Made by a program: the position numbers and the translations under genes
NCBI RefSeq assembly: GCF_011045215.1
Contig: NZ_CP049201.1
Length of the DNA stretch: 64,000 nucleotides
Strand: one strand, 5' to 3'
From: Escherichia coli
GTDB taxonomy: Bacteria; Pseudomonadota; Gammaproteobacteria; Enterobacterales; Enterobacteriaceae
Shown: positions 1 through 28,120 of the stretch, piece by piece
Layout: the number at the start of each line of letters is the position of its first letter
Position numbering within the stretch: position 1 is the first letter of the stretch
The notes under the pieces: generated by a model
What the model was told of the DNA's origin: nothing
Databases searched by the model: none
What the model saw: the letters and a program-made list of their open reading frames with translations, nothing else

Positions 1-2
1 GA

Positions 3-719
3 GTGCTATTTGATAGCGCCAGAATGACATTAAGTCGACAAGAGAAAATAGTCAGGCTCTCCGAGTCAGAGTGCCATTTACTGCTGGCTTTTTGGCTTGG
101 ATTGTATAAAAAAGAAGAGATAATCAATTATGTCTGGAAAAATCGCAGCGGATGCGTTTCTGAATCGAGCTATTACAAACTTATCAATCAACTGCGAAAT
201 AACTTCAATCGGGTGGGGCTTCACGCATCAGATATTGTTACACATCCCCGGGTGGGAATATCGTTATCGATAACGCTGACTTCCGCTGATGAAATGTGCG
301 ACCTTCAGCAACAAAACGATGATGGGGCGCAGAAAATAAAATTCCGTGCCCTTTTGTCGCACCGGTTTATGGTTAAATGTAAAAACATGCGAGTACTTTG
401 TTGCACCAGCGGTGTGGTATTGCTGATAGGTATTATCCTCATTTTTAGTTTTCCCAGCGATACAACATGGAATAAATCTGATAAGGAGTTCACCTCGCTT
501 GGCGAGTTTGATGGTTATATTTTCTTTAAAATGAAGACGGATAAATTGACATTCAAGCAAGTCATCGCCGCATATACATCGATGACATTAAAACCTGACC
601 CGCAAAATGGTCATTATCTTTATTACATCAGGGAGCCTGATATCAATCTTTTATTTCAGTGTTTAAATCCGATTGAAAACGTGGTGCCAAAATGTTTAAC
701 CATAAAAGAACAGTACTGA
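3..719 (+). CDS. ToxR/CadC-like membrane-anchored transcriptional regulator (MarT/YqeI-like); 5' end probably cut by window edge
   Basis: N-terminal OmpR/PhoB-type winged-helix pattern (LLLAF...VW...SYYKLINQLR), single TM helix (VVLLIGIILIFSF), C-terminal periplasmic part with Cys pair; paralog of 1397-2137. Confidence 0.6.
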   Translation: MLFDSARMTLSRQEKIVRLSESECHLLLAFWLGLYKKEEIINYVWKNRSGCVSESSYYKLINQLRNNFNRVGLHASDIVTHPRVGISLSITLTSADEMCDLQQQNDDGAQKIKFRALLSHRFMVKCKNMRVLCCTSGVVLLIGIILIFSFPSDTTWNKSDKEFTSLGEFDGYIFFKMKTDKLTFKQVIAAYTSMTLKPDPQNGHYLYYIREPDINLLFQCLNPIENVVPKCLTIKEQY

Positions 720-1198
720 TTACGATGACGGTCATTGCGCTGGTGCTGATCGTGATATTTGGCAGAAACGGGTGGAGTGTTCAGCGAAATGTTATGAATG
801 TGGATAATTTTATTTGTACATCTAAATCAATAGTTTATATTGAACCTATGAAGATGAAACTGCGTGGTACGTTTGTGCTGGATCTTGAGTCAGACCGAAT
901 CGCCATTCATTATGAAGTTGAACAGGCGGATCATAAGGAAAAACTTTTTTTCCAGGATGTTCATATCAGTAAATTACTCCGAACAGGTATCAGAACGTTC
1001 ACATTTAAAGTCAGCTCAGTAAATAAATTTTCTGCTGATTCAACCGGAGATATGTTTTCCTGGTTACGTCTCCTTCAACCCGGTACGGTGAATGAGTTGA
1101 ATATTGTCCAGATCGGTCAAAATGCATATCTGTATTCGTTGAACAGGCATTTATATAATATTTGTACGACAAGCACCAACGCGGTGAATACGCACTAA
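692..1198 (+). CDS. small membrane protein, ToxS/FidL-like partner of the upstream regulator
   Basis: Overlaps upstream gene by 28 nt; N-terminal TM helix; paralog of 2110-2598 (shared C-terminal YLYSLNRHLYNICT motif). Confidence 0.5.
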   Translation: MFNHKRTVLITMTVIALVLIVIFGRNGWSVQRNVMNVDNFICTSKSIVYIEPMKMKLRGTFVLDLESDRIAIHYEVEQADHKEKLFFQDVHISKLLRTGIRTFTFKVSSVNKFSADSTGDMFSWLRLLQPGTVNELNIVQIGQNAYLYSLNRHLYNICTTSTNAVNTH

Positions 1199-1396
1199 TA
1201 GCTGTGTAATGGCCGGTCTATATGGGCATTGTGGCGGGTGTTGATAACGGAAGGGACTATTACATGTCCAATTTCGTCTGGAGCTGGCCTGTGTTAATAT
1301 GAACGCTGAAGGTTCCGTAAGGCTCTTAACTCAGTGCCTGGCAAGGCTGTACAACGGCAGAATCGGATACTCAATGAATAAATTGCAGAAGAAACC

Positions 1397-2137
1397 ATGA
1401 GCGAGCAAAAGTATCTTATCGACAATCGCGTGATATTTGATTCTGAGCGTATGTCATTGACTCACTCAGACAAAACGGTGAGCATTTCAGAATCCGAAAC
1501 GAATTTGCTGCTTGCTTTCTATAAGGGGTTATTCAAAAAGGATGATTTAATCGGCTGGGTCTGGGGGCGTAAGGGAGTCGTAGTTTCTGATGCCAGCTAT
1601 TATAAGCTCATCAATCAGTTACGTAATACTTTCGACAAAATAGGTCTACCGCCCTCATCTGTGGTGACGCGGCCCAAAGTCGGCGTTGAGCTGGTTTTAT
1701 CCATCACGCTCATTAAGCCTGCGACTCCCCGACAACCTGCTGCTGAACCGGTAGAACACTCAGCCGAATCCTTCAGCGAAACCCCGACAATACATGAACA
1801 CAATAAAACCGCTGTAGCAGGCCAGAGAGACTGGCTTTTTCTGGTATTGGCCGCGCTGTTGATGATCGCAGGATTTGGCGCCAGTCTGTGGGAGAGCCAT
1901 CCCTACTTTTCAGTGCCCGTTACCCATGACGGTTACTATTTTTATAAAGTAAGTAACGATAAAACGTCCTTCGAGGATGTGGCTGCGGCCTATGCAGAAT
2001 TGACAATTCCGGTGATTAAGCAGAATGGACGTCATATTTACTATATCAGAGTGCCGGATACCCATATTTTCGTCCAGTGCCTCAACCCACTCACCGTAGC
2101 GGAGCCAAAATGTATTACCCTAAAAGAACGTTATTAA
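1397..2137 (+). CDS. ToxR/CadC-like membrane-anchored transcriptional regulator (MarT/YqeI-like)
   Basis: Same architecture as 3-719: winged-helix N-terminus, TM helix (LFLVLAALLMIAGFGA), periplasmic C-terminus ending KCITLKERY. Confidence 0.65.
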   Translation: MSEQKYLIDNRVIFDSERMSLTHSDKTVSISESETNLLLAFYKGLFKKDDLIGWVWGRKGVVVSDASYYKLINQLRNTFDKIGLPPSSVVTRPKVGVELVLSITLIKPATPRQPAAEPVEHSAESFSETPTIHEHNKTAVAGQRDWLFLVLAALLMIAGFGASLWESHPYFSVPVTHDGYYFYKVSNDKTSFEDVAAAYAELTIPVIKQNGRHIYYIRVPDTHIFVQCLNPLTVAEPKCITLKERY

Positions 2138-2598
2138 GAATATTCACCGTGTTCTTTATTCTCGTCTCCGTGATGTTATGGGTACAGGTAATAAAGAAGC
2201 ACGCGGTCAGTCACCCCTCCGCGGGCAATTTTTTCTGTGCCACCAAAACGATAAGCAACATACAGGCGAAGGGGATAACCGTTGCGGGGGATATTGTCAT
2301 CGACTTCAAAACGCAACGTATTACGTTACAGCATGATGTGAAACAGCATAATAATGCGCATAGCCTGTTATATCGGGATGTTTACATGAAAAATCTGCGG
2401 CGCGTCACTGACGATCTTTTTACGTTTGAGATTGATTCTGTAAAGATATTTCCTGATGACAATGTCGGGAATTTTTTCTCCTATTTTCGCCTGCTCCATC
2501 CGGGGGGCCGCAACGAATTGCGAATTCAACGCATTGGCGAGAAAACCTATCTTTTTTCGCTTAATCGTCAGATTTATAACGTCTGTACAGCAAGTTGA
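2110..2598 (+). CDS. small membrane protein, ToxS/FidL-like partner
   Basis: Start chosen at MYYPKRTLL to match paralog; 28-nt overlap with upstream gene, N-terminal TM helix. Confidence 0.5.
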   Translation: MYYPKRTLLRIFTVFFILVSVMLWVQVIKKHAVSHPSAGNFFCATKTISNIQAKGITVAGDIVIDFKTQRITLQHDVKQHNNAHSLLYRDVYMKNLRRVTDDLFTFEIDSVKIFPDDNVGNFFSYFRLLHPGGRNELRIQRIGEKTYLFSLNRQIYNVCTAS

Positions 2599-2878
2599 AC
2601 TGCACAGGAATGCCCCGAGAGATTCTCTGAGGCCGTATGATAAGAGAGCGGTAAGCGGTAAGGTAACTGAAAGCTCATTACTTATTTAAATACATGGGTT
2701 TATATCAATCGTTCTGATTCTGTTCAACAGTGACAGAGTGAGATTATGATTTTTGTAAGATCTTCTTCCAGACTTTATCTGCCCTGATTAGCTATATTTT
2801 CGCCGCTGTAAACGGACATCAGAATACGTTTAAGTAGTCGTAATTAATGCTTTTTTCAATAAGATAAAGAGGGAGTAT

Positions 2879-3424
2879 TTGTCCATGTCTACGCGACTTC
2901 GTGGCGCTGCAATAATTTGTTTTTGTCTGCTAGCCTCATCTCAGAGTATGGCTAGTGGCACACATACGGTATCAATGGGGTATGCTCAAACACATCTGAG
3001 CGCATTAAAAAGCTCGAACAGCAAAGATCTTCATGGCTTTAATATAAAATATCGCTACGAGTTTGACGAACGCTGGGGCTTTATTGGTGCGTTAACGGCG
3101 ACTCGCCACGAAGTTGAGCATTATAGCTGGCAATCAGCAAAATTAAAAAAAGAGGGTACCGATACCATTGATTATAGTTCGGTAATGTTTGGCCCAACTT
3201 ATCGCTTTAATGATTACATCAGCCTGTATGGCAATGCAGGTATGGCGAGAATGAAAATGAAAAATACTCACTCAAACGAATCAACGGATGATTCGTTTGC
3301 ATACGGGGCCGGGGTAATATTTAACCCGTTAACCAACCTATCGCTTGATCTTTCCTGGGAAGCGTCAAAATTCTATTCTGTCGATGCCAATACGTTTGGC
3401 GTAAGCGTTGGCTATCGCTTTTAA
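2879..3424 (+). CDS. Ail/Lom/PagC/OmpX-family outer membrane beta-barrel protein
   Basis: Signal peptide, alternating beta-strand pattern, C-terminal GVSVGYRF ending in aromatic residue; RBS-like GGAG upstream. Confidence 0.75.
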   Translation: MSMSTRLRGAAIICFCLLASSQSMASGTHTVSMGYAQTHLSALKSSNSKDLHGFNIKYRYEFDERWGFIGALTATRHEVEHYSWQSAKLKKEGTDTIDYSSVMFGPTYRFNDYISLYGNAGMARMKMKNTHSNESTDDSFAYGAGVIFNPLTNLSLDLSWEASKFYSVDANTFGVSVGYRF

Positions 3425-3485
3425 AAATTGTACTCCCAGGGAGTGGGGATAAGTAAAATCATATTAAAGAAATTAAGGTTTATCC

Positions 3486-3842
3486 ATGAAATATATATTA
3501 CCAGCTCTTTTTACGGTGTTTTTAACCGCCTGTAGCGCTAACTCATTACATTCGGGGGCGGAACGGGTTCGTGTGACTCATAACGAGCCTGGAAAAGAGT
3601 GTTCGTGGTTAGGCGACATCACTGGCAGCCAGGGCAACTTTTTTACCGGAGGTTGGACCTCGAACAGTAACCTCGAAACAGGCGCGCGGAATGATATGAA
3701 AAATCAGGCCTGGAAAATGGGTGGAAATGTTGTTGTGCTGCTAACGCAACGCGCAGGGCAAACAGGCAGTTCGTACAATGGCAGTGGTTCAAGTCAGCAA
3801 ACTAACGTGACGCTAAGCGGATCGGTCTACCGTTGCCCATAG
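3486..3842 (+). CDS. small lipoprotein
   Basis: Lipobox LTAC after signal peptide; 118 aa; Gly/Ser-rich periplasmic body. Confidence 0.55.
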   Translation: MKYILPALFTVFLTACSANSLHSGAERVRVTHNEPGKECSWLGDITGSQGNFFTGGWTSNSNLETGARNDMKNQAWKMGGNVVVLLTQRAGQTGSSYNGSGSSQQTNVTLSGSVYRCP

Positions 3843-4018
3843 TCTACTATATTTCATTGATGAACAGAGAGCAGATATCAACATTGACGATTGCGGTCTG
3901 CTCTGATTCATAAATGTCATAAAGGAATGATATTTCATTTTTTTGAAGGTTATTATGATAATTTCTTTTATGCCGGAAAATATATCTTATATTACTTGTG
4001 GGTATGTTGTTGTAAGGT

Positions 4019-4594
4019 ATGGATATACATTTTAAAGCACAATCTCCTGAGGCAGTAACGCTCGCCGTGTGGCCAGATAATAATCCTCTGTTCACTGACT
4101 CTCTTGCCCATTTGATCACCGAAATAAACGTAATAAATCGCGTAGAAGATTTTCTTTTCGTCAATTTTTGCATCGATAACTTTATATACTTTATTCATGA
4201 TGAGTGGCTTGAAAAGTTGAACAAGTCAGGCCTGAGGGGGGTGCTGGTTATTGACCGTTTTATGCATTCGCTGGCGAATTATTGGCGTGAAAAACAACAG
4301 GATATTATCTTGTTATCGGTTGGCGATCGGGACCTGACGTCATTTGTATCGGCCCTGAATAGCCTGTCTTATGGACAAAGCAGGGTGCTAGAAGATGTCA
4401 TGCCGATAACAGAAAAAGAAATTTTTGTGTTACGTAAACGCCTCTCCGGTATGTCCGTAAGAAATATCGCACTCACCCTTAATTGCTCGGTTAAAAGTAT
4501 TTATTATTGCCAGTATTCTTTATTAAAAAAATTGAGGCGTTCGTCACGAATAGGCGAGATTTATATCCATCACTCTCACGTGCATGAGACTTAG
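4019..4594 (+). CDS. LuxR/GerE-type HTH transcriptional regulator
   Basis: C-terminal LuxR-type HTH (ITEKEIFVLRKRLSGMSVRNIALTLNCSVKSIYYCQYSLLKKL); AT-rich gene. Confidence 0.55.
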   Translation: MDIHFKAQSPEAVTLAVWPDNNPLFTDSLAHLITEINVINRVEDFLFVNFCIDNFIYFIHDEWLEKLNKSGLRGVLVIDRFMHSLANYWREKQQDIILLSVGDRDLTSFVSALNSLSYGQSRVLEDVMPITEKEIFVLRKRLSGMSVRNIALTLNCSVKSIYYCQYSLLKKLRRSSRIGEIYIHHSHVHET

Positions 4595-4798
4595 TCGTTA
4601 GCCTGTTTTTTCTGGCGGAATGACGGCATAACCCGGAAGGGATATGCCGCCTGCTTCAGCCTATCACGCCATCAACGCAAAAACTCCCCAGCCAAAATAC
4701 TCCCGGCTGTAGGTAACATTACGCATCGGCGCCGCGCTTAACTCTGCCCGAACCTCAAGCGCGAAACCTGATCCTACCCACGTAATATGGACACAGGC

Positions 4799-5665
4799 CT
4801 AAGCGAGGTTCTGGTTTTCAAATTGTTCCGGACTGAGGCCGCCACACCAACTGTGCCGCCGCCACCGATTGTAATCACATTCGATATAATTAAACACCGT
4901 TGCCCGCATTATTTCCCGGCTGATAAAGTGTTCTCCATGGATACATTCCACTTTCAGCGAATGAAAGAAGCTTTCCACGCAGGCATTATCGTAGCAGCAA
5001 CCTTTTGCGCTCATACTTCCACGCAGATTATGCCGCTTCAGTTGCGCCTGATAATCTGCTGAACAGTACTGGCCTCCACGGTCCGTGTGAACGATAACGT
5101 TCCGGGGCCTCTTACGCCGCCACAGCGCCATCTGCAGGGCATCGCAGGCCAGTTGCGCCGTCATGCGTGGCGACATTGACCAGCCAATAACGGCACGTGA
5201 CCACAGGTCAATGACCACTGCCAGATACAGCCAGCCTTCATCTGTACGTAAGTACGTGATGTCTCCTGCCCACTTCTGGTTCGGGCCACTGGCGTAAAAA
5301 TCCTGCTCCAACAGATTTTCTGACACAGGCAGGCCGTGTGCGCGGTAGCTGACCGGGCTGAACTTCCGGGAGGCCTTTGCCCTCAGTCCCTGACGGCGCA
5401 GGCTTGCCGCCACGGTTTTTACGTTAAAGGGGTAACCCTGAGCACGCAGTTCATCCGTCAGGCGTGGGGCACCGTAACGCTGTTTTGACCGGGTAAAAGC
5501 CGCGAGGACAACGCTGTCGCAGTGTTGGCGGAACTGCTGACGCGTGCTTATCCTTGTCCGCCGCTGACACCACGTATACCAGCCGCTGCGGGCCACCCGG
5601 AGCACGCGGCACATTGCTTTGATGCTGAACTCAGCCTGATGTTTTTCAATAAAGACATACTTCAT
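4799..5665 (-). CDS. insF: IS3 transposase OrfB (DDE integrase domain)
   Basis: 288-aa translation matches IS3 InsF as remembered ([24 protein letters not shown]...). Confidence 0.9.
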
Positions 5666-5970
5666 TTCAGGCGCTTCGCGAAGTATGTCGCGGCCTTTTG
5701 GAGGATAGCCAGCTCTTCATCCCGTTCTGCCAGCTGGCGTTTGAGACGTGCAATCTCGGTAGACATCTCCAGTTCACGTTCAGAAGACGTCTGCTGATTT
5801 TGCTGTTTACTGCGCCAGTTGTAGAGCTGTGATTCATACAGGCTGAGTTCACGGGCTGCGGCAGTAACACCGATGCGTTCAGCAAGCTTCAGGGCTTCAC
5901 TGCGAAATTCAGGCGAATGCTGTTTACGGGGTTTTTTACTGGTTGATACTGTTTTTGTCATGTGAGTCAC
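5662..5970 (-). CDS. insE: IS3 transposase OrfA (HTH)
   Basis: Translation [31 protein letters not shown]... matches IS3 InsE as remembered; overlaps orfB as expected for programmed frameshift. Confidence 0.9.
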
Positions 5971-6016
5971 CTCTGACTGAGAGTTTACTCACTTAGCCGC
6001 GTGTCCACTATTGCTG

Positions 6017-6175
6017 GGTAAGATCACATCGCTATTAATATTTTGACGAATGATAAGGTATTCAAGGCAGGGTTAAGACGTAAGATGCGAAAAGCAGCCA
6101 TGGACAGAAACTATCTCGCGTCAGTACTTGCGGGGAACTGGCTTTCGTAATCTTGCCCTGATCCCGATAGCGGTC
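6017..6175 (+). pseudogene. ISAs1-family (H-repeat) transposase 3' fragment
   Basis: Nucleotide similarity to 18355-18490 (catcgctattaatatt...caaggcagg...gactacctcgcgtcag), encodes [20 protein letters not shown]. Confidence 0.6.
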
Positions 6176-6337
6176 TAATTATTTATAGCACAAGTGGTTT
6201 TTCAATGAATGGGGAAGATCAAGTGAAAAATAATATTCATTAAAAATTGAATAAAATTGAGAGAAGTATATCTCTTTTTAAAAAAGATCCTATTACTTGA
6301 TAGAAGTAATGGTAATTTATGATATGTTCTTATTACA

Positions 6338-6589
6338 TTGAAGAGTATAACTCTTTCCAAAACAGAATTAACATCATCCGTTCTTAAGCAATATCGATTG
6401 GAACTTCTGAAGTATCATGTTGAACTTGTTGAGTTATTTAATAAATATTATATTGTGAATTATAATCCTCAAAGACCCTATCGTATGCATATGTTTCCTC
6501 CTGTGGATGCGGTAGATGGACTTGTGTTTGGTGAAGTGGACCTGAGTAGAATTAGAGATAATATGAATCAGATCTCAAGGAGAATATAA
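6338..6589 (+). CDS. hypothetical protein, possibly 5' part of a frameshifted gene continuing to about 6800
   Basis: 83-aa ORF in AT-rich DNA; a second open frame follows immediately in a different frame. Confidence 0.3.
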   Translation: MKSITLSKTELTSSVLKQYRLELLKYHVELVELFNKYYIVNYNPQRPYRMHMFPPVDAVDGLVFGEVDLSRIRDNMNQISRRI

Positions 6590-6906
6590 GAATTGGAAAG
6601 GAGCTTTCCTTTCAGGCTGCTTTAACTTCGGTAAAATACGTTCTTGAAGCACCAGATAATAAAGTCGGTAATATTGCCACTATTGAGTTTTTCATCAAGG
6701 TTAATTACGAGAATAACCCTTCTGATAAAGCTGAAGTTGAGAAGGTGCTTAATGAATCAGAACTGAAGAATGCTCTTAAGTCCAGAATTCTTGATGATAC
6801 TGTCAGGCAACACAGATGATTAAATCATCTGGATGTATTTAATGCATAAACATTTCTGAATGATACATAAAAATTGTATTTAATGTTTCCCTCCTGGAGA
6901 ATCTCT

Positions 6907-7191
6907 ATGCCCACAGCAGCCAGACTCAGCGATAAAGGCACCCAGCATGACGGTTATTATGAGACCACCATTATTGCAGGCTCCTCCACCGTCTTTATTG
7001 ATGGTATGCCCGCCGCCCGTCAGGGCGATCCGCTGACACCGCATTCCAAACCTGACCATCCCCCTCACCCCCGTAAAATCGCAGGCGGCTCTGCCACTGT
7101 CTTTATTGACGGTAAACCTGCCGCCAGAACCGGCGATGCCATTGACTGTGGCGGCGTGGTTATCGGTGGCGGCACGGTAAATATAGGCTGA
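6907..7191 (+). CDS. PAAR-domain protein (T6SS spike tip)
   Basis: Two repeats of the PAAR motif (FIDGMPAARQGD, FIDGKPAARTGD), about 95 aa, directly upstream of vgrG. Confidence 0.8.
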   Translation: MPTAARLSDKGTQHDGYYETTIIAGSSTVFIDGMPAARQGDPLTPHSKPDHPPHPRKIAGGSATVFIDGKPAARTGDAIDCGGVVIGGGTVNIG

Positions 7192-7211: not shown

Positions 7212-9611
7212 ATGCCCTCAGAAGGATTACGTTTCACGCTGTCGGTGGACGGTATCGTGGAGATGGCGACGGCGGTGGTGAGCTTCCGTCTGTACCAGCA
7301 CCACTGCACGCCGTTCATCCTGGATGTGGATATCGCCAGCGGGCTGTCTGACCTGACGGCGGAGGATTTTCTGGAGAAGAGCGCGGTGCTGACGGTCTGG
7401 CAGGGTGATATCCCGCAGCGTTACGTCAGCGGTATCGTGACGGAGGTGCAACTGGGGGAGAACAACGACTGGCAGATGCGTTATTCCCTGAGCATCAGCC
7501 CGCCGCTGTGGCGGGCAGGGTTACGGCAGAACTTCCGTATCTTCCAGCAGCAGGACATCCAGACGATATCAGCACAGCTTCTGAGAGAGAACGGAGTGAC
7601 GGCATGGATGCCGCTGTTTTATGAAGACCATCCGGCGCGGGAGTTCTGTGTGCAGTACGGGGAAAGCGACCTGGCGTTTCTGGCGCGGCTGTGGGCGGAG
7701 GAGGGGATTTTCTTCTTTGAGCGGTTTGCGGCGGACAGTCCGGAGCAGAAGCTGACGCTGTGCGACGATGTGGCGGGGCTGTCACAGGCGGGAGAGCTTC
7801 CGTTTAACCCGGACACATCGGCAGGAGCGGAGACGGAGTGTCTCAGTACGTTCCGTTATGAGGCGCATGTCCGCCCGTCGTCGGTGCAGAGTCAGGATTA
7901 CACGTTTAAGGTGCCGGACTGGCCGGGGATGTATGAGCAGCAGGGTGAGAACCTGAACGGACAGCTGGCGCAGTACGAGATATTTGATTATCCGGGAAGG
8001 TTCAAGGATGAGCAGCACGGCAAGGATTTCACGCTGTACCAGATGGACAGCCTGCGCAGTGATGCGGAAAAGGCCACAGGGCAGAGTAATTCACCGAAGC
8101 TGTGGCCGGGAACGCGGTTTACGCTGACGGGGCATCCGCAGAAGATGCTGAACCGTGAATGGCAGGTGGTACAGAGCATACTGTCAGGAAGCCAGCCGCA
8201 GGCGCTGCACGGCAGCCAGGGGAGGGGAACCACGCTGGGAAATCAGTTAGAGGTGATACCGGCAGACCGGACGTGGCGTCCACGGCTGCAAAGCAAACCG
8301 AAGGTGGACGGGCCGCAGAGTGCCATTGTGACCGGGCCGAAGGGTGAGGAGATATTCTGCGACGAACATGGCCGGGTACGGGTGAAGTTCCACTGGGACC
8401 GTTATCACGGGATGACGGAGGCGAGTTCATGCTGGGTGCGGGTATCGCAGGCGTGGGCGGGGCCGGGGTTCGGTAACCTGGCGATACCGCGGGTGGGCCA
8501 GGAGGTGATTGTTGACTTCCTGAACGGCGACCCGGACCAGCCCATCGTCACGGGACGGACCTACCATGAAGATAACCGCTCCCCGGGCGACCTGCCGGGA
8601 ACGAAGACGCAGATGACGATACGGTCGAAGACCTATAAAGAAAGCGGATTTAACGAGTTGCGGTTTGAAGACGCCACCAGTAATGAGCAGGTGTATATCC
8701 ACGCGCAGAAGAACATGGATACGGAGGTGCTCAACGACCGGACAACGGATGTGAAGCATGACCATACGGAGACCATTGGTAACGACCAGAAGATAACGGT
8801 GGTGAAGGGGCAGACGGTTGAGGTCGGGACCAGAAAAGAAGGAGGCCACGACCAGAGTATCACGGTGGCGAACGACCGGAGCATAACGGTACGTAACGAC
8901 CAGACGCTGAAGGTGACAAATGACCGGACGGTGAGCGTGAGTCACGATGACGGTCTGTACGTCAGAAATGACCGTAGGGTGACGGTGAAAGGGAAGCAGG
9001 AGCATAAGACGACGGGTAACCACATCAGCCTGGTGGAGGGGAAGCACAGCCTGGAGGTGAAGGGGGACCTGGCGGAGAAGGTGAGTGGCGCGCTGGGGAT
9101 AGAAGTGGACGGGGATATCGTGCTGGAGAGCAGCAGCCGGATAAGCCTGAAGGTGGGTGGCTCGTTTATCGTCATTCAGCCGGGCGGAGTGGATATTGCC
9201 GGGCCGAAGATAAACCTGAACGGTGGGGGCAGTGCGGGGACACCGGTGGGGACGATGCAGCCGGCGGTGCTGGAGGCTCCGGAGGATGAGAGCAGTGATG
9301 ATGGCAGTGATGACTCCGGAGAGGATAGTGGCAATCCCGCAGGGAGTGACGGAGGAGGTGATGGCGGTGACGATGAAGATGATCCTGAAAAATATACCCT
9401 CCAGTTCCATTTTACGGACGATGACGGGATACCGTATTCAGAGACGCAGTATATTGCCTTTTTTGAGGATGGCACACAGACGCGTGGTGAAACAGACAGA
9501 GAGGGATATACAGAAATATTTTATACAGATACAGCACAGGAAATTAAAGTCCAATTGTTATTTTCGGATGCTTTTTATATTGAGCCGGAGGGGCATTATG
9601 GCAGGGAATAA
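7212..9611 (+). CDS. vgrG: T6SS spike protein VgrG with acidic linker and C-terminal extension
   Basis: 799 aa; gp27/gp5-like core, beta-helix repeats (NDRT.. repeats), acidic stretch EDESSDDGSDDSGEDSG, then about 70-aa C-terminal tail. Confidence 0.9.
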   Translation: MPSEGLRFTLSVDGIVEMATAVVSFRLYQHHCTPFILDVDIASGLSDLTAEDFLEKSAVLTVWQGDIPQRYVSGIVTEVQLGENNDWQMRYSLSISPPLWRAGLRQNFRIFQQQDIQTISAQLLRENGVTAWMPLFYEDHPAREFCVQYGESDLAFLARLWAEEGIFFFERFAADSPEQKLTLCDDVAGLSQAGELPFNPDTSAGAETECLSTFRYEAHVRPSSVQSQDYTFKVPDWPGMYEQQGENLNGQLAQYEIFDYPGRFKDEQHGKDFTLYQMDSLRSDAEKATGQSNSPKLWPGTRFTLTGHPQKMLNREWQVVQSILSGSQPQALHGSQGRGTTLGNQLEVIPADRTWRPRLQSKPKVDGPQSAIVTGPKGEEIFCDEHGRVRVKFHWDRYHGMTEASSCWVRVSQAWAGPGFGNLAIPRVGQEVIVDFLNGDPDQPIVTGRTYHEDNRSPGDLPGTKTQMTIRSKTYKESGFNELRFEDATSNEQVYIHAQKNMDTEVLNDRTTDVKHDHTETIGNDQKITVVKGQTVEVGTRKEGGHDQSITVANDRSITVRNDQTLKVTNDRTVSVSHDDGLYVRNDRRVTVKGKQEHKTTGNHISLVEGKHSLEVKGDLAEKVSGALGIEVDGDIVLESSSRISLKVGGSFIVIQPGGVDIAGPKINLNGGGSAGTPVGTMQPAVLEAPEDESSDDGSDDSGEDSGNPAGSDGGGDGGDDEDDPEKYTLQFHFTDDDGIPYSETQYIAFFEDGTQTRGETDREGYTEIFYTDTAQEIKVQLLFSDAFYIEPEGHYGRE

Positions 9612-10401
9612 TAATACTAGTGGGACTTCACAACCCGAGTCGCAAGTATGTGTAGTACCGCAAAAAATTACAAATAAATTTAAAATAATGATGAGTAAGG
9701 CTTGTAAAGCACAGAAAATGGTTTTATTGAAAAGAGCAGATGATATTATGTCATGGGAGGGGGAACAACAACGAGATTTTATTAAAGTTTTTGGCCTTAA
9801 AGGCGAGGACATTATAAAAATCAGAAAGGTTGGGGAAGATACTGGGAAACGAATGCAAGCGAGACTATTCATAATGGATGGCATCAGACAAATAATGACG
9901 ATTGCAAATGGTTTGACGATCGAAAGCTATAAAGATTATACGAACTGCAATGAATTTGCTGCTTTTATTAGTCCACATCTTGATCCTCCTTACATTGTAA
10001 ATATCGGAGCGCATTTTGAATACAGACATGGTATAAAACAGTCGGTTACAGGTAGAGACTCTCATGTAAGTACACTTTGCCATGAAATGTCCCATATATT
10101 TTGGTATTGGGGTGACAATCAAAAAGGTGGTATGTGGACTCAGGATTATACGGGTATTAATAAGTTCGCAACAAGTAATAAGGATGAAGTTAGCTATGAG
10201 AAACATGTTTCAGTGGCTAATGATCTGGTTACATTGCGTAAAGATCAGTTATTTGAGAATGCATATAATGTTGAAAGATATTTTTATATAAAATTAAATG
10301 ATGAAGATATTGAAGCTCAAGATGAGAATATGTTAGCAAAAAAAGTAGAGGATAAAATAAAAGAGATAGAAAAATGTTTTGATGAGTTGATGGGGAAATA
10401 A
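9598..10401 (+). CDS. putative T6SS effector, HExxH zinc-metallopeptidase-like
   Basis: Start overlaps vgrG stop by 14 nt; HEMSH motif (LCHEMSHIFWYW); AT-rich versus GC-rich vgrG; the longer listed ORF 9223-10401 is an in-frame read-through of vgrG sequence. Confidence 0.6.
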   Translation: MAGNNNTSGTSQPESQVCVVPQKITNKFKIMMSKACKAQKMVLLKRADDIMSWEGEQQRDFIKVFGLKGEDIIKIRKVGEDTGKRMQARLFIMDGIRQIMTIANGLTIESYKDYTNCNEFAAFISPHLDPPYIVNIGAHFEYRHGIKQSVTGRDSHVSTLCHEMSHIFWYWGDNQKGGMWTQDYTGINKFATSNKDEVSYEKHVSVANDLVTLRKDQLFENAYNVERYFYIKLNDEDIEAQDENMLAKKVEDKIKEIEKCFDELMGK

Positions 10402-10402
10402 G

Positions 10403-11242
10403 ATGAAGAGGTTGGCTTTCTATAATCTAAATTATGTTGTACTGATGGTTTTTTTTCTTTGTTTTTTGCCATTATCTATTGCAATTGCAATAGATAATGA
10501 GAATCTTTTTGTAAAAAAATACAGATTCGGTTTTGAACGAAGAAATGACAATGGGAAACCAATTATTTATCTTAGCCATAATTTAGCGCCAGAGGAAAAT
10601 ATAAGTAATGAATTAACAAATGATGTTGTTGTTAAATTGGTGGTTAAGCCACATGCTGAAAATATTTTAGCTACTATAACTTTTTATAACAGTAGTACTA
10701 AATCGTATTTTCTCCCCAGAATATATTATCCAAAGAACTTCCAAAAAGGAAATGGAGATGTATTTGATGCTTTGTGTGATGACGAATTCTTGATTACATC
10801 AGGAAATATTAGCTTAGACTATCTAGGAGGCTTTTGTCCCTTTGAGCTTGATTTGAATTTGAGCCGATGGGTGGAAATTACGGCAGGTAAAAAAATATCT
10901 TTTGATGTAAAATTGAATGATATGCATTCATTTCTCCCCAGTTTAAATAATTATCATATAAAAACATTAAACTACAAACTTGTTAGGAGAAAATGGTTTG
11001 TATTAAAATCAATTAATGAAACATTCCTCTCTATTTTGATGAAAAGATACTCATGTAATGAATATGATTTTAGAGCTATATCATTTAGTGGAGAGGGATG
11101 TGATAATTATGAATTTGATAAAAATACGTTTTTTTTTGTTAATCAAATATTAGATAAAGATGATGAGCAACATTCTGTTCATATTAGGTCTAATGAATTT
11201 TCCATCAATATCGATGGAAGCTTGGTAAAGCAACCTTATTGA
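10403..11242 (+). CDS. putative cognate immunity protein (exported or membrane-anchored)
   Basis: Starts 2 nt after effector stop; N-terminal hydrophobic signal/anchor (VVLMVFFLCFLPLSIAIA); AT-rich. Confidence 0.5.
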   Translation: MKRLAFYNLNYVVLMVFFLCFLPLSIAIAIDNENLFVKKYRFGFERRNDNGKPIIYLSHNLAPEENISNELTNDVVVKLVVKPHAENILATITFYNSSTKSYFLPRIYYPKNFQKGNGDVFDALCDDEFLITSGNISLDYLGGFCPFELDLNLSRWVEITAGKKISFDVKLNDMHSFLPSLNNYHIKTLNYKLVRRKWFVLKSINETFLSILMKRYSCNEYDFRAISFSGEGCDNYEFDKNTFFFVNQILDKDDEQHSVHIRSNEFSINIDGSLVKQPY

Positions 11243-11299
11243 TTAAAATGTATCGCAGGTTTTATTTTCTGTAATGCTGGTGCATGTGCGTAAATATTT

Positions 11300-11730
11300 C
11301 TTAAGAGCCGGAAACACCTCTTCCGCCTTTATCGACGATAAACCTACCGCCAGAACCGGTGATGCCATTGACTGCGGTGGCGTGGTTAAAGGTGGAGGGC
11401 GATGTGGTGCTGGAGAGCAGCAGCCGGATAAGCCTGAAGGTGGGCGGCTCGTTTGTGGTCATCCATTCAGGGGGCGTGGACATCGTCGGGCCGAAAATCA
11501 ATCTCAATAGCGGCGGTAGTCCGGGAACGCCGGTGCCGACGCTGCAACCGGCGGTTCTGAAAGCGCTGGCAGATGATAAAAGTTTAGCGGCTGAGCAAAA
11601 TGATAGTAATGCATCGTCCGATCAGAATGATAACAACGATGAGGGTGAGGAAGCGCCAGAAAAATCGGTGTGTAAGGAGTGCCTGAAAAGGGCGCAAGAA
11701 GCCGCCGCCGTTTTTGCGCCTCGTGGATAA
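11300..11730 (+). pseudogene. PAAR 3' fragment fused to vgrG 3' fragment (deletion scar of a second PAAR-vgrG copy)
   Basis: 11310-11398 is near-identical to PAAR 3' end (7090-7180); 11398-11560 near-identical to vgrG 9120-9280; a distinct C-terminal tail follows. Confidence 0.7.
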
Positions 11731-11736: not shown

Positions 11737-12506
11737 ATGACAATGATAACAGTATCGCCACACGCTACCGATCAAGACAAATATATTATCTGGCTGAAGC
11801 AAGCTGAATCATTCTGTTCTGCCGCTGGTTTGGATTACATAGATGTGCTTGTTGACCAGGCTGGAACCGACCAACCTTTGCAAAATGATATGCTTCATCT
11901 GTCGCCAGCCATTCACTGGTATGCCCTGTTTGAAGGAACGCCTGAAGCTGAGACGATGGAGTATTCCCCTGTAGTGTTACGCCTGTACTTTGCGCTCAGT
12001 AGCCATCGCAAATTTCTGGCACAACTGATGGCGTCATTTGCTGATACGCCGCGTCTTACTTTGTTGATATCCCCTCTTACATTCGACCTGCTGGGCGGCA
12101 TCTTCAGGTATTGTCACAGGTTCAGTGGGAAGAACAGACCGGATTGCTGCGTTACTATGATAATCGGGTGTTCCCTTTACTGTTCACACATGTTTTGACT
12201 AACGAGCAGCAGGCGACATTTACTGATATTGCGTTGTTCTGGAGCTGGTTAGACCGTGATGGTGAGATTAACTGGAAATCAGGAAGTTTTTCACCAGAAC
12301 GCAGGCTTACTGACAACCCGGAGATGAATCGGGTGGATGATGTACAGGTGGGATTGATGGGCTGTATCTGCGACGCTGAAGTCCTGATGAAGGAGAAAGC
12401 AGTCAGTGAACTCAGTCAGGAAAGCTATTTTGCCCACTGTCTTGATATTGCTTTCAGGGCCAATGACGCGAAATATTTCGGAGCTTTGCGGGACTTCGAA
12501 GGATAA
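11737..12506 (+). pseudogene. hypothetical T6SS accessory protein (adaptor-like position), apparently frameshifted
   Basis: Two overlapping ORFs (11737-12198, 12111-12506) in different frames, directly after the vgrG tail fragment. Confidence 0.35.
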
Positions 12507-16275: not shown

Positions 16276-18337
<2,062 letters not shown>

Positions 18338-19990: not shown

Positions 19991-20004
19991 ACAACCCCCA
20001 CTCA

Positions 20005-20781
20005 CTACAACCTAAACTCATCCGCATCCCGCCATGCCGGAAACTTATCGCGATATTCCCTTAACACCGCCATCGACAGCTCCGCATCAATGCGCGTTGC
20101 CTGATGCGCGTCGGCAGTAGCGATAATCTCGCCTTGCGGATTAATCACCCGGCTGTCACCGCGATAATGGCAGCCGTTGCCATCGCTGCCGACGCGATTG
20201 CATCCCGCCACATACGCCTGATTCTCAATCGCGCGGGCCGTCAGCAATGCCTGCCAGTGCAGAGAGCGCGGAGCAGGCCAGTTGGCGACGTACAGGGCGA
20301 GGTCATAATCGTTGAGATTGCGCGACCACACAGGAAAACGTAAGTCGTAGCACACCAGCGGCAAAATACGCCAGCCGCGCCATTCCACAATCACTCGCGC
20401 ATTGCCCGATTTATAATGTAGATGCTCATCTGCCATGCGGAACAGATGACGCTTATCATAAAAATGTACCGTGCCGCCCGGCTCAACCAGCAAAAAGCGG
20501 TTAACCGAACCAGACTCCGTTTGTAATGCAACACTGCCTGCAATCAGCGCATTGCACTGCTGCGCTTTAGCTGTCATCCAGTTCACTACGTCATTTTGTG
20601 CTAGCGACGAAGCTGCCGCTTCCATGGCAAAGCCGCTGGTAAACATCTCCGGTAGAACGATCACATCGCGCCCGGTAATACCTTCCAGTTGACGATCAAA
20701 ATGACGCAGGTTGGCAGGACCATCCATCCACACCAGTGGTTGCTGCAAAAGCGTAATCTTCAAACCAGGCACGGTGTACAA
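20005..20781 (-). CDS. yafV: omega-amidase / nitrilase-family hydrolase YafV
   Basis: CN-hydrolase family sequence with conserved catalytic region; expected neighbour of ivy and fadE. Confidence 0.9.
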
Positions 20782-20925
20782 CTCCTTTATGCGAAGGGTT
20801 TTATAACTTTAACACCTTATCAGGCAGTTGCCTTAGCGCAGAATAAATTGATAACAAATGCTGATATTGGAAATATCTGATTTGCAAATTATCGTGTTAT
20901 CGCCAGGCTTTAGGAGGTTAATAAC

Positions 20926-21399
20926 ATGGGCAGGATAAGCTCGGGAGGAATGATGTTTAAGGCAATAACGACAGTCGCCGCACTGGTCATCGCCACCAGT
21001 GCAATGGCGCAGGATGATTTAACCATTAGCAGCCTTGCAAAGGGCGAAACCACCAAAGCTGCATTTAATCAGATGGTGCAAGGGCATAAGCTGCCTGCCT
21101 GGGTGATGAAAGGCGGTACTTATACCCCTGCACAAACCGTAACGTTGGGAGATGAGACGTATCAGGTGATGAGCGCGTGCAAACCGCATGACTGTGGCTC
21201 GCAACGTATCGCTGTGATGTGGTCCGAGAAATCTAATCAGATGACGGGGCTGTTCTCGACTATTGATGAGAAAACGTCGCAAGAGAAACTCACCTGGTTG
21301 AATGTGAACGATGCGCTTTCGATTGATGGTAAAACGGTGCTGTTCGCGGCGTTGACCGGCAGCCTGGAAAACCATCCGGATGGCTTTAATTTTAAATAA
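20926..21399 (+). CDS. ivy: inhibitor of vertebrate lysozyme Ivy
   Basis: 157 aa, signal peptide, CKPHDCG motif. Confidence 0.9.
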   Translation: MGRISSGGMMFKAITTVAALVIATSAMAQDDLTISSLAKGETTKAAFNQMVQGHKLPAWVMKGGTYTPAQTVTLGDETYQVMSACKPHDCGSQRIAVMWSEKSNQMTGLFSTIDEKTSQEKLTWLNVNDALSIDGKTVLFAALTGSLENHPDGFNFK

Positions 21400-21441
21400 T
21401 TAGCGGATAAAGAAACGGAGCCTTTCGGCTCCGTTATTCAA

Positions 21442-23886
21442 TTACGCGGCTTCAACTTTCCGCACTTTCTCCGGCAACTTTACCGGCTTCGTCGCCAGCT
21501 CTTCCGGATCAAAGTCATCAACGTTAATACTGCGCAGACGGCTTTCTTCCGCTTTCACCAGAATAGCGGCTTCATCTTTATCAATCAGCCCCTTCGCCAG
21601 CGCGTTGTGCGCCAGTTCATCCAGACGGGTAAATGGCAGATTTTTACCCAGCTCTTTACAGATCCGCTGATGAATCGGGTCGGCGGCAATCACATCCACC
21701 AGCGCCTCTTCCAGTAAACCAACCGGGTTATGCTCGCTCGGCGTCAGGTACTGACCGCGACCAATACGTGAACGAGTGGCGTTCGGCACTTGTAAAATCT
21801 TCGCCACTTTATGATCCAGCTTGTCAGACGGTGCCAGATAATGACGTCCGGTCGGGAAGATCACCACATTCAGCAGCCCGGCAACCACGCGGTTCGGGAA
21901 GTTTTGCAGTAAATCGTCCATCGCCTGTTCTGCCTGATACAGCGCATCCTGTACGCCCCAGTGCACCAGCGGCAGATCGGCTTCATTACGGCCTTCGTCG
22001 TCATAACGCTTCAGAACGGCAGAGGCGAGGTAAAGCTGGCTTAAAATATCCCCCAGACGTGCCGAGATACGCTCACGACGTTTCAGGCTGCCGCCCAGCA
22101 CCGCCATCGAGACATCAGAAAGCAGGGCGAGGTTGGCGCTCAGGCGGTTCAGGTGTTGATAGTAGCGTTTAGTGGCATCGCCGGTTGGCGTGCTGCTGGT
22201 TAAACCGCGCGTCAGGCCCAGCCAGAAGCTGCGAACTTTGTTGCTACCGACGTGACCGATATGTTTGAACAACAGTTTATCGAACGCGTTAACGTCATTG
22301 TTCTTCGCTGCTTCCATCTCTTCCAGCACGTACGGATGGCAACGAATCGCCCCCTGGCCGAAGATCATCATGCTGCGGGTCAGAATGTTAGCCCCTTCAA
22401 CGGTGATGGCAATCGGTGCGCCCTGGTAAGCACGCGCCAGGAAGTTGCTTTGCCCGAGCATAATGCCTTTGCCACCAGTGATATCCATCGCATCAATAAT
22501 CGACTGCTGCCCGCGGTGGGTACAGTGATACTTAACGATAGCCGACAGCACGGCAGGTTTTTCGCCGAGCATAATGCCGTAGGTAATCAGCGATGCCGCA
22601 GCATCCATTACATAAGCGTTCCCGGCAATACGCGCCAGCGGCTCTTCAATCCCTTCCATCTTACCAATAGAAATTTTGAACTGACGACGAATGTGCGCAT
22701 ACGCACCCGTTGCCAGCGCTACTGATTTCACGCCGCCGGTTGAGTTGGAAGGCAGGGTGATGCCGCGGCCTACCGAGAGGCACTCCACCAGCATCCGCCA
22801 GCCTTGCCCGGCCATTTTCGGCCCACCGATGATGTAATCGATCGGTACGAAGACATCTTTACCGCGCGTCGGTCCGTTCTGGAACGGTACGTTCAGCGGG
22901 AAGTGGCGACGACCAATTTCCACGCCCGGCGTGGTGGTCGGGATCAGCGCACAGGTAATACCTAAATCTTCTGTGCCACCCAGCAGCTTTTCCGGGTCGG
23001 AGAGTTTAAACGCCAGCCCAAGCACGGTCGCAATCGGTGCCAGCGTAATGTAGCGTTTGTTCCAGGTCAGTCGCATGCCCAGCACCTGCTGGCCCTGCCA
23101 TTCACCCATGCAGACAATCCCGGTATCCGGAATCGCGCCCGCATCGGAACCCGCTTCCGGGCTGGTTAGTGCAAAGCAAGGGATTTCCTGACCACGCGCC
23201 AGACGCGGCAGATAGTGATCTTTCTGCTCGTCAGTGCCGTAATGTTGCAGCAGCTCGCCCGGGCCTAATGAGTTCGGCACGCCGACGGTAATCGCCAGGA
23301 TCCCGCTCACGCCGGAGAGTTTTTGCAGCACGCGAGACTGGGCATAAGCCGAGAACTCCAGCCCGCCGTACTCTTTTTTGATAATCATCGCGAAGAAACG
23401 ATGCTCTTTAAGGTACGCCCACAACTCCGGCGGCAAATCAGCCAGCTCATGGGTGATCTGGAAATCATTCGCCATCCGGCAGGCTTCTTCTACCGGACCG
23501 TCGAGAAACGCTTGCTCTTCTGCGGTCAGGCGCGGCTGCGGATAGTTATGCAGCTTTTTCCAGTCCGGCTTGCCCTGGAACAAGTCGCCCTCCCACCAGG
23601 TGGTGCCCGCATCAATCGCTTCTTTCTCAGTGCGCGACATCGGCGGCATCACCTTACGGAAACCGCGAAATACCGGCGCGGAAATCATCGACTTACGCAT
23701 AGGCGCAAAGTTAAATGGCACGAGGATAATGGCCAGAGGCACCAGTACCCACGCCGACCACAGACCAGCAACGCCGAGGGCGGCTGTCCAGGCGAGCAAA
23801 ATCAGACTGCTGATAAATAAGCTCACGCGGTGATAGAACAACGCGCCGAGCAGGAGAACCGTAGCGAGAATACTCAAAATCATCAT
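21442..23886 (-). CDS. fadE: acyl-CoA dehydrogenase FadE
   Basis: 814 aa from MMILSIL start; N-terminal TM segments, acyl-CoA dehydrogenase body. Confidence 0.95.
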
Positions 23887-24125
23887 AACGAAAAGCCCCT
23901 TACTTGTAGGAGGTCTGACCACTTGTGATGATATGGTTGTAGTGGATGTAAAAACATTTAGCAATGTGTTTACAATATAATTACAACAAAGCTCACATTG
24001 TTGCTGTTTTTATCCGCACTTCAGGTCAAAAAGTCCTGGTCATAGCACCTGCCCGTACTTCTCGCTTTTGGCGGTATCCGGTACACTGCATTTTGTCTAT
24101 TACATTTATGCTGAAGGATATCCTC

Positions 24126-24704
24126 ATGTACCAGGATCTTATTCGTAACGAACTGAACGAAGCGGCGGAAACGCTGGCTAACTTTTTAAAAGATGACGCC
24201 AATATTCACGCCATTCAGCGCGCGGCGGTCCTGTTAGCAGACAGCTTTAAAGCCGGTGGCAAAGTGCTTTCCTGCGGCAACGGCGGTTCCCATTGCGACG
24301 CCATGCACTTTGCCGAAGAGTTGACCGGTCGCTACCGTGAAAACCGTCCGGGCTACCCGGCGATTGCCATTTCTGACGTTAGTCATATTTCCTGCGTCGG
24401 TAATGATTTCGGTTTCAATGATATTTTCTCCCGCTACGTTGAAGCGGTAGGCCGCGAAGGCGATGTACTGCTGGGGATCTCCACATCTGGTAACTCTGCA
24501 AACGTGATCAAAGCGATCGCAGCGGCGCGTGAGAAGGGGATGAAAGTGATCACCCTGACCGGTAAAGACGGCGGCAAAATGGCTGGCACGGCGGATATCG
24601 AAATTCGCGTTCCGCACTTTGGTTATGCCGACCGCATTCAGGAGATTCACATTAAAGTGATCCATATCCTGATCCAGTTGATTGAAAAAGAGATGGTTAA
24701 GTAA
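24126..24704 (+). CDS. gmhA: D-sedoheptulose-7-phosphate isomerase GmhA
   Basis: 192 aa, SIS domain ([16 protein letters not shown]). Confidence 0.95.
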
Positions 24705-24707
24705 GTC

Positions 24708-24865
24708 TGGCGTAGGCCGGATAAGACGTTTACGCCGCATCCGGCATTTGTGCGCTGATGCCTGATGCGACGCTGACGCGTCTTATCATGCCTACAAATC
24801 TGTACGCGAACCGTAGGCCGAATAATGCGTTCACGCCGCATCCGACCTGAAAATTCTTAAATCAA
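24708..24865. repeat. REP/BIME palindromic elements
   Basis: GCCGGATAAG...GCCGCATCCGGC and TGCCTGATGCGACGCTGACGCGTCTTATCATGCCTACA units. Confidence 0.6.
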
Positions 24866-24909
24866 TCTTCGCCGGGGGCCATGCGCTCCCGCTGTTGTGG
24901 AGGTTACCC

Positions 24910-25677
24910 ATGTGCGAATTGCTCGGGATGAGCGCCAACGTCCCTACCGATATCTGCTTTAGTTTCACCGGTCTGGTGCAGCGTGGTGGTGGAACCGGGC
25001 CACATAAAGATGGCTGGGGCATTACCTTTTACGAAGGTAAAGGCTGTCGCACATTTAAAGATCCGCAACCCAGCTTTAACTCACCTATCGCCAAACTGGT
25101 CCAGGACTACCCGATAAAATCCTGTTCGGTGGTGGCTCATATTCGCCAGGCTAATCGGGGCGAGGTGGCGCTGGAAAATACTCACCCGTTTACCCGCGAG
25201 TTATGGGGGCGTAACTGGACTTATGCCCATAACGGGCAACTGACGGGCTACAAATCACTGGAAACCGGCAACTTCCGCCCGGTAGGCGAAACCGACAGCG
25301 AAAAAGCCTTCTGCTGGCTCCTGCATAAATTAACGCAGCGTTACCCGCGCACACCGGGCAACATGGCGGCGGTATTTAAATATATCGCCTCACTGGCGGA
25401 TGAACTGCGGCTGAAGGGCGTTTTCAACATGCTGCTTTCTGACGGGCGCTATGTGATGGCATATTGCTCGACTAATTTACACTGGATCACCCGCCGCGCG
25501 CCGTTTGGCGTGGCAACGTTGCTGGATCAGGATGTGGAAATCGACTTCAGCTCGCAGACCACACCGAATGATGTGGTCACGGTGATTGCAACACAGCCGC
25601 TGACGGGCAATGAAACCTGGCAAAAGATTATGCCAGGCGAATGGCGCTTATTTTGCCTCGGGGAGCGTGTAGTTTGA
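24910..25677 (+). CDS. yafJ: class II glutamine amidotransferase YafJ
   Basis: Starts MCELLG (N-terminal catalytic Cys after Met), 255 aa. Confidence 0.9.
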
Positions 25678-26388
25678 TGCCAGCTGTGGTTGCACAACTT
25701 CGTGGCTTAACGGCTTGCTGACCACGTAACGACCATTGACCACAGAAACGGTCGGTGGCTTACGGGTTTGCTCAAAGTAGTCGTAACCCGGCTTCAGTTG
25801 CTCCCAGAAGTCCTTAAAGTCGGAATATTTATGGCGCTTCATATTAGCGTCGGTCATGCGGAACGGGTAAATACTCACTTGCACGCTCGGCTGACCAAAC
25901 ACCAGCGCACCAGTAACGAACTGGAAGATCTCATCAATACCCTGATTGGTCATCGCGTAGCAGCCGATGGAAACACAATCGCCGTGGATCATCAGGTATT
26001 TCCCTTCATAACCATGCGCACGGTCATAGGCATTGGGGAAACCAATATTAATCGCTTTGTAGTAACGGCTGTCTGGTTTTAACTGATTACGCTGGACGCT
26101 ATAAAACCCTTCCGGGCTTTTGAAATCGCCCTGACGCTGTTTTGGCCCTAAGCCGCCGGAATATTTACAGATTTTATAACTGTCGAGCAGCTGATATTGC
26201 TCGCCCATTTTGACGTAGAGATCGAGCGTACGTTCTTCCTTGAAGATCTGGATGTAGACAGGGGATCCCATCAACTGCTGCTTATACTCTTTGCTCACTG
26301 GCGTGGTCGAGCTACTGCTGCCCAGCAAACCGGCAAACGAAACGCACGGGATCAACAACATCGCAAGAATTAATGCGATTTTACGCAT
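25648..26388 (-). CDS. yafK: L,D-transpeptidase family protein YafK
   Basis: 246 aa, signal peptide, YkuD-like domain with catalytic region HGDCVSIGC. Confidence 0.9.
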
Positions 26389-26543
26389 ACTGCTTATTCC
26401 TTGATAAAACGGTTACACACGCCAGGACGGCAAAATGGATCCCAAATCGGAATAGTCTGGATTTGGAAGGCTCACATTATCACCAAAAGAGTTTTACGCA
26501 AGCCTGTCGGCGCAGGGTTTACAAATTTCATCGGAAGCGGGCT

Positions 26544-26822
26544 TTACCCAAAGAGCGCCGCGTGAGTTCCAGTTCTCTCAAATCGTAAAAGTTTATCGGT
26601 AAGTTTGTAAATCAGGATCCAGTCCGGTTCGACATGAGCATCGCGATAACCTTTCCATGAACCTTGCAGCGGGTGGTCTTTATAAACAGCTGGAAGCGGT
26701 AAAGTATTATTGATAAGAAGCGTCATAAGATATTTCAATTTATTCATATCCATATGACGCTTTTGTGCAAGTTTTACATCCTTTGAAAATTGTCCCGAGT
26801 ATTCAATATCCCTTTGAAACAT
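26544..26822 (-). CDS. yafQ: type II toxin YafQ (RelE/ParE fold mRNA interferase)
   Basis: 92 aa; directly downstream of dinJ with 2-nt spacing. Confidence 0.9.
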   Translation of the reverse strand: MFQRDIEYSGQFSKDVKLAQKRHMDMNKLKYLMTLLINNTLPLPAVYKDHPLQGSWKGYRDAHVEPDWILIYKLTDKLLRFERTGTHAALFG

Positions 26823-26824
26823 AT

Positions 26825-27085
26825 TTAAATTCCTAATTTATCAAATAAATCATCGGCGTCTTTGGCCTTATGAACATCAACGCCAGCTTCGCTGTTTTTG
26901 ATTGATTGAATAGTTAATTGATTAGGCTCGCGTAAATCAAACGGCAATGCCTTTTCACGCGCGACCTTTGTGAGGGTTATGCGAACCAGGTCAGAGATGG
27001 TCAGCCCCATCCCGGCCAGTACGTCCGCCGCCTGATTCTTCAGATCTTCATCGATTCGTGCGCGAACAAACGCGTTAGCAGCCAT
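26825..27085 (-). CDS. dinJ: antitoxin DinJ
   Basis: 86 aa RHH-type antitoxin upstream of yafQ. Confidence 0.9.
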   Translation of the reverse strand: MAANAFVRARIDEDLKNQAADVLAGMGLTISDLVRITLTKVAREKALPFDLREPNQLTIQSIKNSEAGVDVHKAKDADDLFDKLGI

Positions 27086-28044: not shown

Positions 28045-28120
28045 GACGGATAAGGCGTTTACGCCGCATCCGGCAATTGTGCGCGGATGCCTGATGCGAC
28101 GCTGACGCGTCTTATCAGTA
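28045..28120. repeat. REP element
   Basis: GGCGTTTACGCCGCATCCGGCA...TGCCTGATGCGACGCTGACGCGTCTTATCA. Confidence 0.6.

Follow-up and report, generated by a model that had tools for sequence, protein, structure and literature searches.

The interval between aspV and yafV in the Escherichia coli genome GCF_011045215.1 (contig NZ_CP049201.1; the window is the 64,000-nucleotide stretch of it that was analysed) contains approximately 21 kb of an integrative island, namely its integrase-distal end, followed by one IS3 and approximately 14 kb of T6SS-1 accessory modules, and it has neither the integrase half of the island nor the att repeat nor any T6SS core. The absence of the integrase half and of the T6SS genes is best explained by an ordinary IS-mediated deletion, and a deletion that arose by recombination between two direct copies of IS3 is assigned a probability of about 0.55. 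Judging from the genome comparisons described below, the integrase half of the island was removed in this IS3-marked deletion and the T6SS-1 core was probably removed with it, and by extrapolation from the strains PapRG-06-5 and LF82 the loss would amount to ∼9-19 kb of island and ∼27 kb of T6SS-1. The features on both sides of the junction are given in Table 1.

Table 1. Features flanking and within the IS3 element, in window coordinates.
Feature	Position	Strand	Basis or remark
Retained part of the aspV-integrated island	1..4768	plus	99.96% identical to PapRG-06-5
SAM-dependent methyltransferase 3' stub, 34 codons, cut by IS3	4664..4765	minus	RefSeq annotation of the identical PapRG-06-5 sequence
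Left flanking triplet ACC	4766..4768	.	IRR-side junction common to PapRG-06-5
Complete IS3	4769..6026	minus	1258 bp; unique terminal 31-mers and gap-free K-12 IS3B alignment
IS3 insF (orfB), intact	4799..5665	minus	single substitution relative to K-12, K285Q
IS3 insE (orfA), intact	5662..5961	minus	identical to K-12 InsE
Right flanking triplet CAT	6027..6029	.	single occurrence there in intact ISAs1 (GGTA/CATCGC, ET350)
ISAs1/ISEc1 (H-repeat) 3' terminus, ∼135 bp	6027..6161	plus	5' ∼1.1 kb missing
PAAR gene, first of the T6SS accessory module without upstream cluster	6907..7191	plus	
VgrG, 799 aa	7212..9611	plus	chimera: PAAR-module vgrG 5' part and T6SS-1 vgrG-M35 3' part

The termini of the IS3 were read in window 4200-7000. 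The right inverted repeat, IRR (TGATCCTACCC..., more fully TGATCCTACCCACGTAATATGGACACAGGCC), forms the left end of the element with its first base at 4769, and the left inverted repeat, IRL, is found at the right end as the reverse complement of TGATCTTACCC... (more fully TGATCTTACCCAGCAATAGTGGACACGCGGC), with its last base at 6026. Both terminal 31-mers are unique in the 64-kb window, where chance predicts none, and the alignment with the reference element, the annotated IS3B of K-12 MG1655 (mobile_genetic_element, NC_000913.3 391709-392966; 1258 bp), has no gaps and two mismatches (99.84% identity). The original prediction had estimated the element at about 1248 bp, below the canonical length, but its actual length is exactly the canonical one. 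In addition to a length of ∼1258 bp and imperfect TG...CA terminal inverted repeats, the element has the overlapping insE and insF genes (DDE/rve domain) with predicted programmed -1 frameshifting, all of which place it in IS3, and the annotation of the near-identical copy in PapRG-06-5 gives an IS3 transposase that has rve domains and a programmed frameshift.

Like the window element, K-12 IS3B is 1258 bp in length with the same terminal inverted repeats, an identical insE and one substitution in insF. In contrast to the window element, which has the unrelated flanks ACC and CAT, it is a simple insertion, located in yaiT, with the arrangement GAT/IS3/GAT. That the window IS3 lacks a matching 3-bp target duplication, with acc to the left and cat to the right, had been predicted, and the absence is real, because identical end calls give a perfect GAT/GAT in K-12 IS3B; an error in end mapping as the cause of ACC/CAT is thereby ruled out. 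The present flanks therefore do not come from one insertion event, and the assignment of the element to IS3 is unaffected. An IS21-family element located 10 kb downstream within a second ISAs1 remnant (1954 bp, 16276-18229; istA of 340 aa, istB of 260 aa), which resembles IS100, is, unlike the IS3, a normal simple insertion since it has a perfect 5-bp duplication, GCCAC.

The sequence to the left of the IS3 is unrelated to that on the right, as had also been proposed, and is the island integrated at aspV. A methyltransferase pseudogene stub adjoins an EcpR/LuxR-type regulator at 4019-4594, and the other retained island genes encode two wHTH regulators, Ail/Lom and DUF4156. A set of 5426 complete E. 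coli genomes was used for comparison, and the 800 bp to the left of the IS3 are present in one of them, that of PapRG-06-5 (100% identity), an E. coli from a Guinea baboon in The Gambia, in which an IS3 of the same orientation forms an identical left junction. Past this IS3, in the orientation of the window, PapRG-06-5 has ∼19 kb more of the island, then a T6SS cluster, ISEc1 and yafV-ivy-fadE. The order of the island genes is a fimbrial operon, IS630, a second direct IS3, a truncated c-di-GMP phosphodiesterase gene, YfjI, AlpA and a tyrosine integrase, and beyond the integrase come a 14-bp repeat of the tRNA-Asp 3' terminus and then a complete T6SS cluster (impA to tssM, vgrG, Rhs), while the opposite end of the island is at aspV, adjoining dnaQ. 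A search of the window for the att repeat did not find it. The island, which measures ∼45 kb in PapRG-06-5, shows 99.95% identity between genomes that are only 97.9% identical in the adjoining core DNA.

The IS3 at the methyltransferase site of PapRG-06-5 is also without a duplication (ACC/ACT), and the IRL side therefore had a history of rearrangement before, or independent of, the window event. Neither of the two IS3 copies in the PapRG-06-5 island (L004 17030-18287 and 27546-28803) has a duplication, their flanks being aag/agt and agt/ggt, respectively, in the orientation of the record, and the 9.3-kb fimbrial segment between them has AGT at both borders, as if a circle consisting of IS3 and the fimbrial segment had integrated into a resident IS3. 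When the right flank of the PapRG IS3-2 copy was compared with the methyltransferase ORF, two frames were stopped next to the junction and one was open for ∼60 codons. A 9-bp flank seemingly common to PapRG IS3-1 and the window in a BLAST extension was rejected as a chance match, with agreement at only six of the nine positions.

The sequence to the right of the IS3 was originally taken for the 3' end of an H-repeat transposase, and this is correct, as it consists of the last ∼135 bp of ISAs1/ISEc1, including the last 40 transposase codons with the stop at 6148-6150. The end of the fragment had been placed at 6175, about 14 bp too far, as the ISAs1 match stops at ∼6161. The fragment is 95-98% identical to annotated ISAs1/ISEc1 3' ends (99.7% in ET350), which places it in the ISAs1 family, and ISAs1 copies that match the right flank are present in 4993 of the 5426 complete genomes, in each case over query bases 1 to 134-137 only. 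The intact ISAs1 of ET350 reads ...GGATACGGTA/CATCGCTATT... at the position of the breakpoint; the IS3 terminus therefore abuts an internal position of ISAs1, of which ∼1.1 kb is missing.

Downstream of VgrG are an M35 peptidase effector, Tla1/Tli1/Tle1, more ISAs1 remnants, yafV, ivy, fadE, lpcA and yafJ, and this right-hand region corresponds to the distal portion of the aspV-yafV T6SS-1 locus of E. coli. The T6SS-1 loci of LF82, 23CRST027 and GCA_009901295.1 (L018) have the same accessory part, with PAAR, vgrG, the M35 effector, Tla1/Tli1/Tle1, ISAs1 remnants and yafV-ivy-fadE, but the window has the island fragment and the IS3 where the core genes (tssA-M, hcp) stand in those strains. In LF82 the order is aspV, the 27-kb core, hcp, vgrG, two genes, ISAs1, PAAR, vgrG, further genes and yafV. 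L018, with an overall identity of 98.3% that rises to 100% from ∼8627, carries tagH-tssG-F-E-C-B and hcp immediately ahead of the same vgrG, and its TssF is widespread (319 blocks, of which the longest contigs were read). None of the T6SS core genes (tssA-M, hcp) is found in the aspV-yafV interval of the window genome.

The vgrG gene itself is recombinant. The region 6027-∼7527 (the ISAs1 stub, PAAR and the 5' end of vgrG) matches the 'orphan' ISAs1-PAAR-vgrG modules of ET350 and OU349846 at ∼100% identity, the sequence from ∼8627 onward matches the vgrG-M35 module of the T6SS-1 of GCA_009901295.1 at 100%, and ∼7527-∼8627 is a mosaic. An exact-protein look-up of the window VgrG found no record. 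The tla1 gene (DUF4123, Tle1 chaperone; 11737-12506) seems to be broken into two ORFs (153 and 131 aa) that overlap. Identical split calls are made in one comparison record (L019), an intact gene of 254 aa is present in another (L020), and L018, which has the T6SS-1 core, has a truncated call of 151 aa. Further downstream, yafV-yafL (20000-28300) has no match of at least 99% in the 5426 complete E. coli genomes, the best being 98.6%, and the lineage of the window is therefore poorly represented among complete genomes.

Both flanks of the IS3 thus belong to the aspV-yafV interval, they are in their native relative orientation, and in relatives there is additional DNA between them. This, with one endpoint exactly at the IS3 terminus and the other IS3 junction conserved, is the signature of an IS-mediated deletion. 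An inversion between inverted IS3 copies is ruled out because the relative orientation of the flanks is preserved, the island and yafV-fadE having the same orientation in PapRG-06-5 and in the window. No close relative of the same lineage that carries an allele from before the deletion was found in the collections searched, where the best core identity is 98.6%, and a genome with both flanks or with the IS3/ISAs1 junction of the window was also sought, with no single-piece match in the 5426 genomes.

Independent information on the left side comes from the short-read assembly SRR11014969, which was found by exact-protein look-ups. One of its contigs, SRR11014969_219, is 100% identical to window 1-4798 and ends 30 bp inside the IS3, with its other end within the 3' end of tRNA-Asp, and a second contig is 100% identical to window 9128-11436. 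The carriers of the exact fimbrial protein, the integrase and the 614-aa protein, all of which belong to the integrase half of the island, do not include SRR11014969; all three are in SRR11014962 and the 614-aa protein is in SRR11014958. The window-like strain also differs from PapRG-06-5 in a 3.76-kb stretch of the distal island (GTPase, WYL-domain and YfjS-like genes), which is found only in the latter (PapRG-06-5, L025, 14744-18500; between 14743 and 14744 in SRR11014969_219, L026). The absence of the integrase-half proteins from SRR11014969, and the comparison with PapRG-06-5, L018 and LF82, lend support to the IS3-mediated deletion or recombination that was first proposed. As to what was lost, the rest of the ISAs1 and perhaps T6SS genes had been named, but the proposed scope was too narrow, as half of the aspV island was lost as well.

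In the history that is favoured here, an island carrying IS3 in its methyltransferase gene would first have been situated at tRNA-Asp (aspV), upstream of a T6SS-1 locus with the ancestral order of core genes, hcp, vgrG module(s), ISAs1 and then PAAR-vgrG and the genes that follow. A second IS3 of the same orientation would then have inserted at the CAT triplet in the ISAs1 that immediately precedes the PAAR-vgrG module, and homologous recombination between the two direct copies would have excised everything between them, that is, the integrase-proximal half of the island, the att repeat, presumably the T6SS-1 core with hcp and the first vgrG module, and ∼1.1 kb of ISAs1. This would leave a single intact IS3, its left flank (ACC) inherited from the first copy and its right flank (CAT) from the second. 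The second copy would have to have existed, and the T6SS core would have been present immediately before the event.

Recombination between two copies is favoured because it needs only ordinary insertion and RecA-type recombination, because IS3 does land inside or next to ISAs1 elsewhere (14 genomes cover the junction query in two pieces, with IS3 55-313 bp from the corresponding ISAs1 position), and because the PapRG-06-5 island already has two direct IS3 copies. It is also weakly favoured by the divergence of the IS3 itself, which differs from PapRG IS3-2 at three of 1258 positions (4895, 5516 and 5886) compared with eight of 14,743 in the adjacent island (Poisson p ∼0.03), a difference that gene conversion could mimic. 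On the other side, the postulated insertion of IS3 in ISAs1 at CAT was not found in any genome or contig searched (5426 genomes), the differences within the IS3 do not form a clean mosaic, the first one from PapRG IS3-2 being 126 bp from the IRR end, copies of an IS can be homogenised by gene conversion, and the IS3 at the methyltransferase site of PapRG-06-5 is already ACC/ACT.

A deletion of this type could also be made without a second IS3 ever having been present, if the IS3 in the methyltransferase gene attacked the ISAs1 with its IRL end in a one-ended, transposase-driven adjacent deletion. This would be an aberrant copy-out strand transfer, possibly resolved by a helper such as IEE, in which the DNA from IRL to the new target is lost. 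The end structure would be the same as that observed, with the IS3 kept, the IRR junction as in PapRG-06-5, a new junction at the IRL terminus and no duplication. Deletions that extend from IS629, a member of the IS3 family, are reported and are attributed to 'sloppy' strand transfer (bioRxiv 10.1101/2023.06.07.543989), and the failure to find an IS3-in-ISAs1 allele at this site is what would be expected. However, copy-out-paste-in transposition regenerates the donor, and an extra, unproven resolution step is needed (bioRxiv 10.1101/2023.06.07.543989), and the greater divergence from PapRG IS3-2 of the IS3 body than of its flank is unexpected without an exchange. A one-ended deletion is considered unlikely.

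Alternatively, there may have been no deletion in situ, and a segment from a PapRG-like donor (the dnaQ/aspV side, the island and the IS3) could have replaced the aspV-proximal DNA of a recipient by homologous recombination, with the right crossover within an IS3 already present in the ISAs1 of the recipient. Ancestry does change sharply at the IS3, with identity to PapRG-06-5 of 99.95-99.96% on the left and, on the right, 97.9% over yafV-yafJ, the closest stretch there that can be compared, and the island is present in several unrelated backgrounds of one baboon study (PMC7643976). On the other hand, the spread of the island is more simply explained by site-specific integration, because it has its own integrase and 14-bp tRNA-Asp repeat and because its neighbours at aspV differ, the island integrase being next to yafT in SRR11014962 and next to the T6SS in PapRG-06-5. 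Import by recombination, which likewise requires an IS3-in-ISAs1 allele that has not been observed, is a quite improbable origin for the junction. Finally, an assembly artefact, in which the assembler merged two genuine IS3 copies that each had a target duplication and left out the intervening DNA, is very improbable, even though IS3 is a 1.26-kb multi-copy repeat and the right-hand junction is documented by the window sequence only, because the fimbrial, integrase and 614-aa proteins lying between the PapRG-06-5 copies are independently absent from the window-identical short-read assembly, and both flanks are in the expected locus and orientation.

Both the IS3 element and IS-mediated deletion are well known, and there are precedents for a deletion such as that favoured here, by recombination between two direct copies. 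In the long-term evolution lines of E. coli, deletions involving IS150 and the rbs operon reportedly take place between a resident and a newly inserted copy. These are said to leave, as here, a single IS with hybrid flanks, no duplication and an endpoint exactly at the IS terminus, whereas the inferred loss in the window genome comprises half of an integrative island and a T6SS core, and the two-copy intermediate is unobserved. The genomic deletions associated with IS629 and IEE in E. coli O157 (Kusumoto et al. 2011, via bioRxiv 10.1101/2023.06.07.543989) are, as far as that secondary account goes, similar in that an IS3-family element is accompanied by a deletion into neighbouring DNA, and different in that the window IS3 is retained intact.

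A deletion between two IS3 copies would explain why the aspV-yafV locus has T6SS genes for effectors, immunity and VgrG/PAAR but no secretion machine, and why the neighbouring island lacks an integrase. It is a textbook case of accessory DNA being pruned through an IS that serves as a portable site of recombination, and it does not change the general understanding of such events. For annotation purposes, PAAR and VgrG at this locus are not to be counted as a working T6SS-1, and the island is best regarded as immobilised. The near-identity of the island in different backgrounds and its differing neighbours at the integrase end point to a recent spread by horizontal transfer among E. coli from baboons in The Gambia. 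A wider scenario can be put forward only tentatively, and is on balance doubtful, in which the aspV-targeting island spread horizontally among co-resident lineages of wild Guinea baboons, and in one recipient a single IS3-mediated deletion took the integrase and att site, thereby fixing the cargo, together with the whole T6SS-1 core, stranding an intact PAAR-VgrG-M35 and Tle1 effector/immunity set. If this were true, the stranded effector/immunity set could persist as immunity 'orphans'.
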